DNA from: a virus
Lineage: Duplodnaviria > Caudoviricetes
Virus record (IMG/VR): IMGVR_UViG_2974611114_000001
Coordinates: 40,330 to 104,329 of that record
Length of the DNA stretch: 64,000 nt
Reading direction: 5' to 3' (one strand)
Under the pieces are notes generated by a model. It worked only from the letters and a program-made list of their open reading frames with translations, was not told the DNA's origin and did no database searches. Of the stretch, positions 5,629 to 60,037 are shown one piece after another; positions within the stretch are counted from its first letter, which is position 1; each line of letters starts with the position of its first letter. Made by a program: the position numbers and the translations under genes.

Positions 5629-5877
5629 TTATATTACTTTATAAGGATCTTTGCAAATAGAATTTTCATGTATTTCCGATAGTTCTTTATACCGCTTCTC
5701 TAGAACTAATGTTATCATCTTCTGCAATCTGACTGTTCTTCTATGCTCTAACCAAGATATGGGGTCAGGTAGTAACATCAAGGCTGGTGGAACGACCCTA
5801 CAGATAGGTCGTTCATCTCTTTCCTCGACGTATTTCTTGGCTGGTGGCTTAGCATATACTTTCTTCCATCTACCCAT
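5629..5877 (-). CDS. conserved T5-like hypothetical protein
   Basis: MGRWKKVYAK... ORF overlapping the obp stop. Confidence 0.6.
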   Translation of the reverse strand: MGRWKKVYAKPPAKKYVEERDERPICRVVPPALMLLPDPISWLEHRRTVRLQKMITLVLEKRYKELSEIHENSICKDPYKVI

Positions 5878-8647
5878 CTCCAAGCTCCAAATCAGCAATA
5901 CCCTCATAGTACTTCTGCTTCTCTTCGATAGTCATAAATGCTACAGGTAACTGGATACCTTCTATTCTGCAGTACGTTCTGTACCAGTCTACAATATTAG
6001 TAGTATCCATATCTTTACCGATACCCATCATTGTTAAGTACATTCTAGCATATTTAGGAGATGCACTATTACCAGTTCTAATAAAGAATTCCCTTTTATG
6101 GGATTTCATAGCCTCTACGAATGGGACTATTGTCTTTTCAGAACACCTAGTAATTGGCTCCCAGAAAATGTCTTGAACCTTATGGAAGAACCCAGCTCGT
6201 TCGTGTGGCTTTTCAGTAACGTATTGTTCTACTAATTCTCTGGTTAGCTCATTGATGTTGTCCAACTTATAGTACTGTAATAGTAACATCTTTTCAGAAT
6301 ACGCATCATTATGTCGTAATGGTGTGTAATCAGGAGTAGAAGACATAATAGCATCCACACGTTGATTAAAGTACTCAGTACTAGCGCTCTCTATACCTCC
6401 CCAGCTTTCCGTAAATATATCAATAGTTGCACCTTGATCTAATAAATAGAATCTTAACGTTGATTGATAGTTTTTACTCTCTATCTCCCTACGTCTGGCG
6501 TATAGCTGTTGACTTCTATCAATCCATCCCTCATCAGCATTATATTGCTCAGAACCTGCAACAAATCCAGCAACACCAGGATTAGTATACATATAGATTG
6601 ACATTGCACCACGATCTCGCCTGATAGCTTGCATTCTCATGTTTGGTGAGTGATTGGCTGTATTAGTTATTACAAATACGTTATCAAAGTAATTAAAGTC
6701 AACACCACTAGTTACCGATGGACTACATAATAGGGCATCAATCCCCTGATCAATTAACTCTTGGTTAGTTAAATCTAGGATTCTTCTAATATCGGGATCC
6801 TCTGTAGATGAGGAGTGGACTTCTTTAACATTCGCCCCTGTTGCCGCTCGTAGGGCTATGCCCTTTTCGGCTAACTGGGCGGGACCGGAGTCTGATACTA
6901 ATATTGACTTCTCACCCATCTCTAGAGATGTTTGCAGAGCTGTCCATATAGACTTTTCGTCAGGAAACTCATATACTTGAGCACCCTCCAGCATTCTTCT
7001 ATGGTGATTGTAATAATAAATAGGTTTGGCGAAGCCAATTAGAGCACCATAAGCCTCAATCGTTTCTGCACTAATATCACCATCCGATAGAACAACATAG
7101 TCTGCTGCCAGTAGTAGTTCTCGTAACGTTTCGATGCATGCCCTACGTTGCTTTACGACCGGCGCAAATAATAGGTCATTCATAACAGCGTCTGCTTCAT
7201 CAATAAACACGAAGTTAACTCTATCGGTGAATGTTGCGAACTTATGTATGGAATGAATAGTAGTTGACATTCTATCAATACCACCACGTTTAAAGTTTAG
7301 CATGTCTGCCGTCTTACAATATTGACCTGCACCGAATTTAGCTGCGTTAGATGCTACCAGTGAACGGGTGTTCGTTACTGCTAGGAACCCCCCTTTAACT
7401 AACCCCTTATTAAGCCAATTAATAATTGCAGTTGTCTTACCAGTACCTAAAGATGCTTTAACGAATGTCATACTATTAGGTGGCGGGATTTCCCGAAGTT
7501 TTAAGTACTTTTCCGCCTCGTTGCTATCAGTTTTCAGGGCGTACAAAGGCACTCCCTTTAGATTACCTTCAGGGATTTTTCTAGCTGAATTGTTAACGAA
7601 TGCTTTTAATGCTTGACGTCTACCATTATTAAAGTAATCTTGAACAGAACGTCTGTTATCTTTAGTACTTACATACTCCTCAAGATATGGACGAATTTCT
7701 CTCTCTAGCCAAGCTAGATCAACGCCCTCTTCTAATGCTCTATGGTAGAGTTTAGGAATAATACGAAGATATACACCATCTTCTGCTTCTTCAAGCTCTC
7801 TGATAGTATCCTCTATTTTTTCTGATGTAGATTTTTTTCCTTTAATAGAATCTAATAATGACAAAAATTCCTCTTTAAATTCACCACGAGTTGACTCATA
7901 GTCTGGTGCATTATGTGGAAGATTAATCTTCGAACCCTCAACACGCACCAATCTTGGAATTCTACGTTCTAGGAAAGGATCTACCATGCCATCCTCAAAG
8001 ATAGGATCAGCGAAGTAATGTGGTTGTACTGCTGAATAGTACGCTAAGTCAATAAGGTCGGAACCATACTTTTGGCGTGACGATTCGTTGACAGTCGAAA
8101 ATATAAACTTCAACTGCCCTTGTGTAACTGGAATATTGCTTTCTAGAATTAAGTGAATACGAATCCCTGGCTTTATGCCAGCAGAAGATGATGCATGAAC
8201 AATAAAGCCTGCATCCAATGGAAACATATCCTCACTTATATTATTAAGCATCTTTATAGCAAACTTTGCTTGACCTACCAAATCGAAATGATCAATATCT
8301 TCAGGCAAGGGGAAGTCGTCCACGTCAATAGCTACTACATGGCTTCGCTCTGTTAAATCAAAGTTTACTCTACGTCTATAAATAGCATTCTTAGAACCAG
8401 TACATTTACCGCGAACGGCTAATAGGTACGGATTCCTAGTGAGGGTGTGTAAAAGATCCTCCATCTCGACTAAGTCTTCTGGATATACCTCATCAACAAC
8501 ATTATACTGAATAGCCATAGATGCTGGCTTGCCTTCTGGATGTTCTTTATTGAATCGTTTACAGAATACTAAATCTGTATCCTTTTCATACTCACCAGTG
8601 GCTTTATTCAGACGATAGCCCTCATGTCCCTTTAAAATAGTGAACAT
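5870..8647 (-). CDS. obp: replication origin-binding protein / SF2 helicase with N-terminal primase-polymerase-like region
   Basis: 925 aa; ASLGTGKT Walker A, FIDEAD Walker B, SPSVTSGVDF, QAIRRDR; N-terminal IDVD...IHLIL; T5 synteny. Confidence 0.9.
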   Translation of the reverse strand: MFTILKGHEGYRLNKATGEYEKDTDLVFCKRFNKEHPEGKPASMAIQYNVVDEVYPEDLVEMEDLLHTLTRNPYLLAVRGKCTGSKNAIYRRRVNFDLTERSHVVAIDVDDFPLPEDIDHFDLVGQAKFAIKMLNNISEDMFPLDAGFIVHASSSAGIKPGIRIHLILESNIPVTQGQLKFIFSTVNESSRQKYGSDLIDLAYYSAVQPHYFADPIFEDGMVDPFLERRIPRLVRVEGSKINLPHNAPDYESTRGEFKEEFLSLLDSIKGKKSTSEKIEDTIRELEEAEDGVYLRIIPKLYHRALEEGVDLAWLEREIRPYLEEYVSTKDNRRSVQDYFNNGRRQALKAFVNNSARKIPEGNLKGVPLYALKTDSNEAEKYLKLREIPPPNSMTFVKASLGTGKTTAIINWLNKGLVKGGFLAVTNTRSLVASNAAKFGAGQYCKTADMLNFKRGGIDRMSTTIHSIHKFATFTDRVNFVFIDEADAVMNDLLFAPVVKQRRACIETLRELLLAADYVVLSDGDISAETIEAYGALIGFAKPIYYYNHHRRMLEGAQVYEFPDEKSIWTALQTSLEMGEKSILVSDSGPAQLAEKGIALRAATGANVKEVHSSSTEDPDIRRILDLTNQELIDQGIDALLCSPSVTSGVDFNYFDNVFVITNTANHSPNMRMQAIRRDRGAMSIYMYTNPGVAGFVAGSEQYNADEGWIDRSQQLYARRREIESKNYQSTLRFYLLDQGATIDIFTESWGGIESASTEYFNQRVDAIMSSTPDYTPLRHNDAYSEKMLLLQYYKLDNINELTRELVEQYVTEKPHERAGFFHKVQDIFWEPITRCSEKTIVPFVEAMKSHKREFFIRTGNSASPKYARMYLTMMGIGKDMDTTNIVDWYRTYCRIEGIQLPVAFMTIEEKQKYYEGIADLELGDG

Positions 8648-8721
8648 GCTACTATAACTCCTTTGTTATAAATTTTAGATACAATTATACTATATAGAAT
8701 TACCACTTGTCAATTGCATTT

Positions 8722-9410
8722 TTCACGGCTAAGGCTTCCGGTGGCACAAGTGCTCGGGTTCCCCTTATCTTACTCCTGCAACTTCTAGTTAATAATAAAC
8801 AGATTCCATAACTACCTCTTACGCCATTGTGCTAGGGAGAGTGTTCCACGTAAGCCCCATCGTTGCATCGATTCTTTAAGTTTCATTATGTTCACTGCTA
8901 GTACAGACGTTTTCTCAAAATAGAGAATTACTCCGAAGCTATAAACTTATATCACCATTCATTGTATTACTTCAAAACCATAATGCGGCAAGGTTACGAA
9001 TGCTAACAGCCAGTTGAATCATAATAACCGCCCCACGATATCAGATAACCCGCTAAGGCATACGTGGCTCGGGACCCCTTTCCTCCGAGGAGGCATTAAG
9101 CGCCGTAGTTACTAAGTTCAATATCCGACTTTTTTCAGGCTCGAGGCAGTAGGGCATACATCTCTGATTAAGGCATCGAATGCCATATGTACCGCACGCG
9201 GGATCACACCGCACCTACTCTGTTAGCTTTGAATTGTCATAATACGAATAATGTTACAGGTTCATAGTCATCGGAGACAAAAGTCTCCGACTAAGGCAGA
9301 AATCTACCTCAATATAATAAGAGACCCAACGAACCGTACTCTATCGAGTATCTCTAAGGGCACTCTAGGAATACCCTTAGAGATCGGGGATCCCTCCCCT
9401 CACTCGATAT
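8722..9410 (-). ncRNA. candidate ~690-nt structured non-coding RNA (or origin/primer RNA region)
   Basis: No ORF of 60 aa or more; own minus-strand promoter (TTGACA 9443-9438, TATAAT 9420-9415); many hairpins. Confidence 0.55.
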
Positions 9411-9467
9411 AAATATTATATCAAATATTTAAAAATTTGTCAAGAATACTTTATAAAATCGCATCGA

Positions 9468-10106
9468 CTAACGGCGTACAACACGTAATGTACCGATTAG
9501 ACCATTATCAATAGCAAACCCAAGAATCTCATCCAACGTCGAATCTTTAAGCTCAACATGGAATGCACTAGAATTTGCGCTACTGATGCAAATACCTACC
9601 ATTTCTTTATAGAGATCAGAATCCTCCCCGTAAGTCTCCGATACATAATCAAGGGCATTCAAAAGCACTTCATTTTTAAAACGTCGCATTGCTGGGCAAT
9701 CTTCATTAGTAAGACCCGCTAATAGGTTACGACCAACAATGTTTAAGAGATTTTCATCTCCTAGCACTTCGCTAGTGTCGCATTCAACAATGTTACGTAA
9801 GGAAAAGTCAATAGATGCCTCATCGTATGCAAGTATATGACCAGTACATGCAAAAATTAACGAGTTGATAACCCTAAACCCTGGAGTTAATATCATCTCT
9901 ACCAGCATATTTGCTAGAATACCGTCCGCCACAAACATACTTTCTGTTAAAGTCTTAGATACTCTAGGGGTAAATAGCATTGGGTATTCTTTATGGATGC
10001 ATTTGAGCACGTAAAGCAGATCTACTTTACCAATCCCTGCATCAATCCAGTTGCCATCAGCAACATAACCCATCTGTACACTATCAATAATCTTTACTAA
10101 GTACAT
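9468..10106 (-). CDS. hypothetical protein
   Basis: 212-aa ORF with GAGG RBS and own promoter. Confidence 0.75.
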   Translation of the reverse strand: MYLVKIIDSVQMGYVADGNWIDAGIGKVDLLYVLKCIHKEYPMLFTPRVSKTLTESMFVADGILANMLVEMILTPGFRVINSLIFACTGHILAYDEASIDFSLRNIVECDTSEVLGDENLLNIVGRNLLAGLTNEDCPAMRRFKNEVLLNALDYVSETYGEDSDLYKEMVGICISSANSSAFHVELKDSTLDEILGFAIDNGLIGTLRVVRR

Positions 10107-24099: not shown

Positions 24100-24149
24100 T
24101 TTAAAATTTTAGTTGCTAAATGCTAAAAACTTTGATATAATATTTATAT

Positions 24150-24890
24150 TAAATCGGAACACGGATTATTAATAATTCTAATAGTACGATTTCAGGGTAC
24201 AGCAGGCAGACTATGCTGGTAATATAAGTACATTGTGCTAATTACGAATAGAATCTGTGGGTTTCACTATCATAGTGTATAATTTGGCTCTTAACCACCC
24301 CGTAAACTCTACCCTTGCATTTTACTACGGTTTAATGCAGAAGAAAGTAAGTATCTTGGTACAAGAGGCGTAGACACAGGATCGCGGTGCAAATCCGTTA
24401 AGTTATCTGCATAAAAGAAGCAACGAAATCTACTCGTCTGGGTTCAACTCCCAGTAACAGATAATAAGGTACTAAGAGAAAACAACGAATAAGTATACTA
24501 GGTCGCGAACTACTATACTGAGTCCCTAATACTAAATTAGGAAATGTGGAGCTGATCACTTCCCATTTCGGGATATACTACCTCATGGGGCACCAATATT
24601 AATAGCGGAACCCATACGCTTCCTAGGCACGTAAGGGATAAGTCATGACACCCTGCCTATGATGGAATATTGGAGAAAGTGGTAGTGTAATCCCGAAATG
24701 GGTGTGTCGAACTCACTTATGTTGTAACCCTGTTAATATATGAGAGTGTTTACGGGAGTATATTAATAAGAACAAGATAACTGGGGCTTATATATTAAGC
24801 ATCGCTGGCACTACGAACAGTATCCAGGTCTGACCAGGAGACGCTGTTAATGAAGAAAGCCAAAACCCATTACTTAATTATCAGAGATAA
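24150..24890 (+). ncRNA. candidate ~740-nt highly structured non-coding RNA
   Basis: Promoter TTGCTA...TATAAT at 24113-24141, no ORF, several nested long-range helices and two T-loop-like hairpins. Confidence 0.65.
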
Positions 24891-58318: not shown

Positions 58319-60037
58319 ATGTATAAAATCGAATCGCTATCTAAAGCCCATAAAGAATGCCTAGCAAAAATGGCTCAGGATTTAAATTTCTATGGAAAGC
58401 GAATCCTAGAAAGCAAGTTAGGCGTATGTGAGCAAGTGGCTAGCGCGTTTCATAAAGACACTGGCAGAGAAATATCTAGTACCGATTTAATGGATTGGTA
58501 CGAGGAAAACCGCCCCGTAAAAGTTGCCACAAAGCGAGAAAAGGCAATCAAAGAAGACACACGTCCAGTTTCGGACGGTATCTTAAACAATGAGTGGGAA
58601 CGTTGGGAAACACTTAGCGGTAATTGTTGGATATTAACCAGCGCGCAAAATAACACTGATTTAAATAAGCCGTTCTGGTTAGCATTGAAGCGCTTGTCTG
58701 ATTATCTTAATGCGCCTATCCTAACAAATAGCGTTACTTATGCGCTTACAGAGTTTAAGAAGATGGATAGACTCGAACACCGTTACCCCGAAGAAATACG
58801 CTCTACGTTAATTAACGAAAACGTATATTTAGGTAATAACGGGTTTTGTTTCCTAGCGAAAACTAATATCACGCCTAGCGCTCGATTCCCTATTCAGGGA
58901 TTAGGGGGCATTTTACCGCCTAATGCGAGCGGTGCGTTTGGTACGGTTAAGCAGGACAGCGAATCCTTGCCAGTTGCTAAAGGTTGTGATAGTCGTCAGA
59001 TTTTCGGCACTGGTACGTTAACACAACGTAACTATCGCGGTAAGAAAGCAGGTCAAAAAGTTGAACCTTTCCATACATACGGGGCTTTAATCGTTACTAT
59101 GGACGAGGACGGCTATCACCACGTTAGACAGATTCAATCGGTTGATGATACTGGCGCATTTTATGATTTTGATGGCAACGAGGTTTTTTATGTTACGCCA
59201 GATAGCATTGATTTAGTTAATGTTGATGAAGATCGTCCAGTGTCGGCTATCCAATATGGAGATATTCACGCCGAAAAAGTTGATCCTCTAGTGGCAGAAA
59301 TTAGCTGGGATATGAGTTATCCGTATAGCTTATCGCGTCGGCTAAAGCCTGTTTATACATGTATTCATGATGTAATCGACTTTATGAGCCGTAACCATCA
59401 TAATCGCAATAACCCAGACTTCTTGTTTGAACAATGGTTACTAGGTCGTGAAAATGGCGGTCGTAGCGTAGAAGATGATTTGCGAGATACCGCTAACGTG
59501 TTAGAGCAAATCGCAGAAAACCAAGATACTACGCTAGTGATTGTTGAATCTAACCATGATTTAGCATTAACTCGCTGGCTAACAGATCGCGATTATAAAG
59601 TGGGTTATGATCCAGCTAACGCCATTACTTACCATAGCTTAAACTTAGCTAAGTTTGAAGCGCTCAAAGCTGGAAAAGAATTTAATGCACTTGAACACGC
59701 ATTAAATAACATTGGCGGGCTTGATATTGATAACATTCGTTATCTAAGCGTTGACGAAGATTTTACGGTTGCTGGCGTTGCTATGGGCTTTCATGGTCAC
59801 AACGGAATTAATGGCTCGCGCGGTAGCGCTAAAGGCTATACAAAAATGTTTATGCCAATGAATACAGGACACACTCATTCGGCATCTATCCTAGATAACG
59901 TATGGACGGCTGGCGTTTCAGGCTTAAAAGACATGGGCTATAACATCGGCGGTACTTCATGGACGCAGAGCCATATCATAACCTTTAAAAATGGTCAGCG
60001 TATGTTATTAAACGTTGTTAACGGTCGCTTCTTTTAA
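58319..60037 (+). CDS. A1: T5 A1 protein (host DNA degradation / second-step transfer; metallophosphoesterase-like)
   Basis: LTSAQNNT, GDIH, HDVIDF, SNHD, HGHNG-NGSRGS, GHTHS, MGYNIG. Confidence 0.9.
   Translation: MYKIESLSKAHKECLAKMAQDLNFYGKRILESKLGVCEQVASAFHKDTGREISSTDLMDWYEENRPVKVATKREKAIKEDTRPVSDGILNNEWERWETLSGNCWILTSAQNNTDLNKPFWLALKRLSDYLNAPILTNSVTYALTEFKKMDRLEHRYPEEIRSTLINENVYLGNNGFCFLAKTNITPSARFPIQGLGGILPPNASGAFGTVKQDSESLPVAKGCDSRQIFGTGTLTQRNYRGKKAGQKVEPFHTYGALIVTMDEDGYHHVRQIQSVDDTGAFYDFDGNEVFYVTPDSIDLVNVDEDRPVSAIQYGDIHAEKVDPLVAEISWDMSYPYSLSRRLKPVYTCIHDVIDFMSRNHHNRNNPDFLFEQWLLGRENGGRSVEDDLRDTANVLEQIAENQDTTLVIVESNHDLALTRWLTDRDYKVGYDPANAITYHSLNLAKFEALKAGKEFNALEHALNNIGGLDIDNIRYLSVDEDFTVAGVAMGFHGHNGINGSRGSAKGYTKMFMPMNTGHTHSASILDNVWTAGVSGLKDMGYNIGGTSWTQSHIITFKNGQRMLLNVVNGRFF

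Follow-up and report, generated by a model that had tools for sequence, protein, structure and literature searches.

Large structured RNAs without a known function are uncommon, and time and again they have opened up new biochemistry. T5, a model phage for seventy years, carries an RNA of this description, RNAX (rnaX), which is entered in GenBank as a misc_RNA, a "stable RNA with unknown functions". Folded RNAs are also known in association with replication functions: ColE1 RNA II is a folded RNA of ~550 nt, and folded primer RNAs of that type have a conserved structure, while the leader of T4 gene 32 is a structured autoregulatory mRNA leader of a phage replication gene. The RNA described here is encoded directly upstream of obp, the gene for a helicase with an origin-binding annotation, and is a real, undescribed structured RNA family of the enterobacterial T5-like phages, including T5 itself. 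The literature searched contained neither a description of a T5 RNA at this site nor a mapped T5 origin.

The locus upstream of obp and the fold of its transcript

The window, the whole stretch of 64 kb (64,000 nucleotides) that was analyzed, comes from a T5-like Proteus phage of the genus Novosibvirus in the family Demerecviridae, with ~99% identity to the phages Stubb, RP7 and VTCCBPA139. Its obp gene (5870-8647, minus strand) codes for a UL9-like SF2 helicase of 925 aa, which matches PF02399 at residues 391-536 as well as phrog_3712 and is annotated as an origin-binding protein. The protein is ~66% identical to its T5-type counterparts; its T5 orthologue, the D2 bipolar helicase, has the same Pfam domain at residues 392-532 (PMC3632103). 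Between obp and the next gene upstream, which specifies a hypothetical protein of 212 aa and likewise lies on the minus strand, there is a gap of 820 bp (8648-9467).

The original prediction proposed that a near-consensus minus-strand promoter fires into this gap and that obp has a promoter of its own, and both are present. The RNA promoter (9443-9415, minus strand) combines a -35 element TTGACA (9443-9438) with a -10 element TATAAT (9420-9415) across a 17-nt spacer; it matches the sigma-70 consensus at 12 of 12 positions, has an extended -10 (TGnTATAAT) and places the predicted transcript start at ~9408 on the minus strand. The separate obp promoter (8713-8684, minus strand), directly before the gene, is likewise a 12/12 sigma-70 match. 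No terminator-like site was found in 8400-9800, and transcription is hence predicted to continue from the RNA into obp. The -10/discriminator stretch of the RNA promoter is common to the T5-type promoters at the same place, and the T5 record itself carries an annotated promoter at the equivalent position with nothing between it and obp. When the sequences of T5 and GZ8 were read by eye, no correctly spaced equivalent of the second obp promoter was seen; in these phages the element is therefore likely to be the 5' part of the obp/D2 transcript. Within the window, the RNAX-like locus (24101-24160), which heads the tRNA cluster, and 9415-9445 have almost the same extended -10 and discriminator. 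This stretch, common to the RNAX-like locus, the window RNA and the T5-type obp-upstream promoters, suggests a putative promoter class dedicated to the large RNAs of the phage.

The minus-strand RNA folds at -220.7 kcal/mol with z = -4.5, as against z = -0.6 for its complement (20 shuffles), and a repeat of the test with 25 shuffles gave z of -3.0 for the minus strand versus -0.2 for the plus strand; the unusually good folding is limited to the transcribed strand. All six helices that had been named from inspection occur both in the sequence and in the minimum-free-energy (MFE) fold. At the predicted start lies P1 (9343-9408, minus strand, as are all the elements that follow), a compound 5'-terminal hairpin seen in the MFE fold with pair probabilities of 0.5-0.9. 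It is followed at 9323-9339 by a block which, on a reading of the sequence, is like the T5-type single-stranded block UACGG..C.GUU.GG, the likeness to the T5 types being weak and that to the PR1 lineage closer. A long, irregular closing stalk (P0/P2a) is formed by a 5' strand at 9228-9253 and a 3' strand at 8953-8976, the latter regarded as the place where the conserved core ends. The stalk is among the top long-range helices of an unbiased list, and the probability of P2a is 0.89-0.96. Immediately inside it, P2 joins 9220-9227 to 9002-9009 by 8 bp of perfect Watson-Crick pairing; its 3' strand was placed from the long-range helix list and the homology-guided fold. P2 is a top-three helix of the unbiased list, in which it stands (RNA positions 182-189/400-407) with the stalk (176-185/429-438) and the outward extension of the latter (156-181/433-456), and it has a low probability in the thermodynamic ensemble of the window RNA.

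Within the domain, the hairpin H5 (9033-9067), which corresponds to copy A of a duplicated module, has the invariant 8-mer CUUAGCGG (9057-9050) enclosed by an outer helix. Between the 3' strands of P2 and the stalk is a P6-like hairpin (8976-8995) with a UUGCC-containing loop, resembling in position and loop the hairpin of the lineages T5-B, L032, L033 and GZ8; its stem has only 3-4 bp and a low ensemble probability. The stalk, P2, H5 and the P6-like hairpin follow each other in the window in the same order as in the T5 types. This homology-guided architecture costs the window RNA 5.9 kcal/mol relative to an MFE of -154.1, and the thermodynamic ensemble favours only P1 and the stalk, not H5, P2 or P6. 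Beyond the stalk lies a lineage-specific 3' extension (8714-8952), which is less conserved, holds copy B of the module (8728-8766) and is without a counterpart in the T5-type RNAs, which stop ~60 nt before obp.

The duplication of the module, also part of the original prediction, holds: GCCTTAGC has just two occurrences in the 64 kb, one at 8728 and one at 9052, and both copies are preceded by an AAGGGG..CCCGAGC block. Compared with copy A (9052-9080), copy B (8728-8766) again presents GCCUUAG in a hairpin loop, and it seems to derive from the H5 region by partial duplication and decay. A reading of the two copies as iterons was rejected because copy B sits in the lineage-specific extension and the other lineages are without such a repeat. 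The shorter string CUUAG has five occurrences in the RNA of the window.

Homologues in T5 and other relatives

When the gap was searched with blastn against 50,697 phage records, near-identical Proteus phages alone were recovered; hence, homologues were collected through the synteny with obp, using tblastn of phage records (908 records), IMG/VR (52 loci) and metagenomes. Every lineage inspected has a gap of 600-860 bp before obp that is unannotated or dubiously annotated, and in each of the 20 enterobacterial sequences that were examined, a strong promoter precedes the start of obp by 480-773 nt. Seven enterobacterial lineages, barely alignable with each other by blastn, could be distinguished, namely the window, PR1, GZ8, L032, L033, T5-A and T5-B, with T5 itself belonging to the T5-A type. 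A start-proximal hairpin is found in every lineage, its stem sequence being different in each. The 8-mer CUUAGCGG is present exactly once per obp-upstream RNA in all seven lineages, and in the 64 kb of the window it occurs once per strand. Across the lineages, H5 is built as a UUAGCG hairpin set inside an outer helix of 5-8 bp with an internal loop on the 3' side, the outer sequence being lineage-specific; this two-tier fold is the MFE structure in 8 of 10 isolated segments. The T5-type RNA has one copy per genome, always upstream of obp, and in T5 it is a folded RNA of ~430 nt before the D2 helicase gene (~59054-59482 in AY543070).

The window was left out when the two covariance models R1 and R2 were built; on it they score 9.6 bits (E 1.3) and 10.3 bits (E 1.8), respectively. 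Their best match in the window falls at H5, in the right place, with a score that is not significant and is equalled by a chance hit elsewhere in the genome; the models also contain P6 flanks that are absent from the sequence of the window. Given this score, the assignment of the window RNA to the family is not statistically established; its basis is the synteny, the common promoter core, the motif and the architecture.

The same models detected nothing in the Vibrio lineages, nor in a group of phages with ~50% identical obp proteins. In four Vibrio Demerecviridae (L006, L046, L048 and L049), a consensus promoter is followed by 690-815 non-coding nt before obp. The first 100 nt are almost the same in all four and include a hairpin close to the start, a further hairpin displays CUAAGCG or CUAAGUG, and the obp-upstream region may be distantly homologous to the enterobacterial RNA. 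L007 and L008, which are likewise Vibrio relatives, have a gene annotated as PhoH-like on the reverse strand, farther upstream of obp. The metagenomic L038, L050 and L063, which belong to the group with ~50% identical obp, have a divergent gene and an AT-rich gap of 380-450 bp with two close promoters and no large RNA. As the large RNA is missing from such relatives, the helicase does not universally need it.

Salmonella phage Shivani has the promoter and first hairpin twice in tandem (L004, 1845-2060). The promoter is ~100 nt farther upstream in L012 and L034, in which the sequence at the usual place of the first hairpin also differs, and it is farther upstream in L043 too. The 5' end of the element thus seems to be a candidate hotspot of duplication or insertion. 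As for the interior, Tequintavirus and Epseptimavirus have two barely alignable central domains, T5-A and T5-B (e.g., L004 versus L009, RNA nt ~110-400), and the two types of RNA share both ends and the UUAGCG hairpin. This pattern indicates a probable modular exchange of the RNA interior by recombination.

Covariation, strand and constraint

Compensatory change was assessed on a MAFFT alignment of ten T5-B variants with L032 and L033, which leaves the window outside. Seven helices (P2, P3, P3a, P4, H5 outer, H5 inner and P6) with 36 pairs were tested. In these, 98% of the cells are standard pairs and both sides change in 18 of the 36 pairs, the structure having been derived from the same sequences. 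None of 500 shuffles reached the observed values of pairing or covariation, and sliding the partners by 1-3 columns reduced the pairing to 40-47%, with 0-6 pairs changing on both sides. The obp-upstream regions of T5-like phages, proposed at the outset as the place to look for covariation, thus have compensatory changes in half of the T5-type pairs tested. The pairs of the stalk helix P2a covary too. The closing helix P0 shows compensatory differences between T5-A and T5-B, and in L032, L033 and PR1 it is made of unrelated sequences of 12-16 bp. For the outer helix of H5, the cognate flanks sum to -62.5 kcal/mol, as opposed to -43.4 for the best of 1854 between-lineage derangements. The tested helices have ~20 G-U cells versus 1 C-A cell, and this excess of ~20 to 1 indicates that the structure belongs to the sense strand as RNA. 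The reading of the locus as a large phage ncRNA is supported in this respect, that is, at the level of a conserved, strand-specific and covarying RNA structure.

Three further approaches were set aside. A MAFFT alignment of short H5 segments did not keep the structural register and was not used for pair counts. A generic nested-helix search against shuffles was dropped as a test, as its search space was too large to discriminate, yet it exposed the P0 stalk. An alternative pairing of the conserved 5' block with P6 or the 3' region was dropped because the partners were inconsistent between lineages.

Constraint on the element was compared among three Proteus phages, namely the window, Stubb and RP7. 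Of the 438 nt from 9408 to 8971, 2 sites vary, and none varies in the promoter region. The number of variable sites per 100 nt is 6.0 in obp, 10.4 in the upstream genes and 4.7 in the 3' extension (8970-8714), the last corresponding to 12 sites in 257 nt; relative to the flanking genes, the variability of the core is 13-20 times lower. The first variable sites past the core, at 8952 and 8942, are just beyond the end of the stalk. Variable sites thus resume right after the stalk, which defines the conserved unit as a core of ~450 nt (9408-8953). The low diversity of the core could reflect a recent exchange of the segment among three close phages rather than selection. The RNA core is in any case among the most conserved stretches of the replication region of the Proteus phage.

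Possible roles and comparison with known systems

We infer that the element acts as RNA, and neither as DNA nor as protein. The explanation that we favour, and consider probable, is a structured RNA element that heads the replication-gene block of the T5-like phages. The host RNA polymerase would start at the consensus promoter, and the transcript would begin with the stable hairpin P1. A domain of ~450 nt would then fold, closed by the long irregular stalk and containing the long-range helix P2, several hairpins, H5 with its displayed UUAGCG loop and the small P6 with its UUGCC loop; with no terminator, transcription would run on into obp. One role open to such an element, which we rate as a serious candidate falling short of an even chance, is that of an ornate cis-acting leader of the obp/D2 replication transcript. 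It might shield the 5' end from decay and serve as a platform on which a protein of the phage or the host docks to control the expression or processing of obp. A second role, rated only slightly lower and proposed by analogy with RNAX of T5, is that the closed domain might be released, or might accumulate, as a stable trans-acting RNA. In the window, the second promoter together with the poorly conserved 3' extension suggests that the core is a self-contained module. It is also conceivable, albeit rather unlikely, that this ornate phage RNA works with the UL9-like D2 helicase, either as a cofactor or primer marking the start of replication or as a ligand- or protein-sensing switch gating the replication block. 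The RNA is present in genetically tractable phages that grow on laboratory strains, and whether it contributes to the control of replication, to RNA stability or to the interaction with the host is directly testable.

The original prediction also raised the possibility of a replication origin with a primer or R-loop RNA, in which the transcript would hybridise to the template close to obp, and the UL9-like helicase together with the replisome would use it to initiate DNA synthesis. Such an origin would account for the position of the site next to a protein annotated as origin-binding, for the strong promoter without a terminator and for the location of the T5 counterpart near the middle of the T5 genome. 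The structural conservation would pose no difficulty for it either, being a property also of folded primer RNAs such as ColE1 RNA II. Nevertheless, the cumulative GC skew passes the site without a turn and reverses only at the change of gene orientation near 12.1 kb, the repeated module is absent from the other lineages, and the relatives with ~50% identical obp have just a short AT-rich gap with divergent promoters in place of the RNA. Furthermore, the strand bias seen in recombitron editing of T5 fits a replication that proceeds predominantly from one end of the genome (PMC10055335). The absence of a skew switch, the unconserved repeat and these T5 data weaken the case for an origin, which we regard as mildly disfavoured and, overall, as doubtful.

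A considerably poorer account is that of a non-functional spacer, namely a promoter-bearing mosaic junction between the accessory and the replication blocks in which the structure is incidental. The central part does differ strongly even within Tequintavirus (T5-A and T5-B), the 3' extension of the window is poorly conserved and the single-sequence fold z-scores are weak in some lineages, but a mere junction should not have compensatory changes in seven helices, a hairpin motif invariant over seven lineages and a core so much less variable than the genes on either side; we consider it very improbable.

With regard to coding potential, the transcribed stretch of ~690 nt was originally described as free of ORFs. 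Its length (~695 nt) and the lack of a credible ORF stand. "ORF-free" goes a little too far, as there are short ORFs of 25-53 aa, all of them unconserved in other lineages; the longest in the gap (8648-9467) has 53 aa and a GTG start. Several GenBank records call "hypothetical proteins" of 30-61 aa here, on either strand and with no RBS, in Stubb (L001, 6069-6774), RP7 (L002), mar004NP2 (L009, 1916-2418) and D233 (L007, 1808-2432). A coding function of the region for one or several small proteins, as annotated in the records of Stubb, RP7 and mar004NP2 and in keeping with the ORFs of 25-61 aa called in several GenBank entries, deserves hardly any credence, since the annotators of Stubb themselves record missing Shine-Dalgarno sites, the called ORFs are on different strands in different records, and no ORF is conserved across lineages, the stop-free segments being explained by conserved nucleotide blocks, beyond which they are unconserved and with frames that differ between lineages. 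These small "hypothetical proteins" are probably spurious, the product of gene callers that filled the locus of a non-coding RNA.

Returning to the RNA element at the head of the replication-gene block, its relationship to known RNAs was sought by the cmscan comparison with Rfam that had been suggested at the outset. The search of Rfam 15 (4227 models, permissive E <= 1-10) gave nothing relevant for the window and the seven lineages; no family was matched, including GOLLD, ROOL, OLE, 6S and RNase P as well as tmRNA, group I/II introns and riboswitches, and ARAGORN found no tRNA or tmRNA in the region. With GOLLD, ROOL, OLE and raiA the obp-upstream RNA has in common a size of several hundred nt, multi-helix junctions and a frequent association with phages, and it differs from them in being predicted to read through into the downstream gene. 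The likeness to ColE1 RNA II and to oriF/oriG of T4 is one of analogy, in that each has a promoter-driven, unterminated transcript beside replication functions; unlike that type, the window site is without a skew switch. Like the autoregulatory leaders exemplified by T4 gene 32, the element is situated 5' of a replication gene in the same transcript. It is, however, five to ten times larger than such leaders, the RBS is not visibly sequestered and, in the window, there is an independent downstream promoter for obp.

RNAX of T5 resembles the obp-upstream RNA in being large (719 nt), in having its own promoter and in occurring in the same phage family. The two have no similarity at E <= 1, and RNAX is without the UUAGCG motif; when T5 RNAX and the RNAX-like locus of the window were compared with the obp-upstream RNA, the promoter core was shared and nothing more. 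They also differ in their genomic context, with RNAX heading the tRNA cluster and the obp-upstream RNA, which is unannotated in T5, heading the obp/replication block. The obp-upstream RNA is a new family within the known kind of large structured phage RNAs of unknown function.
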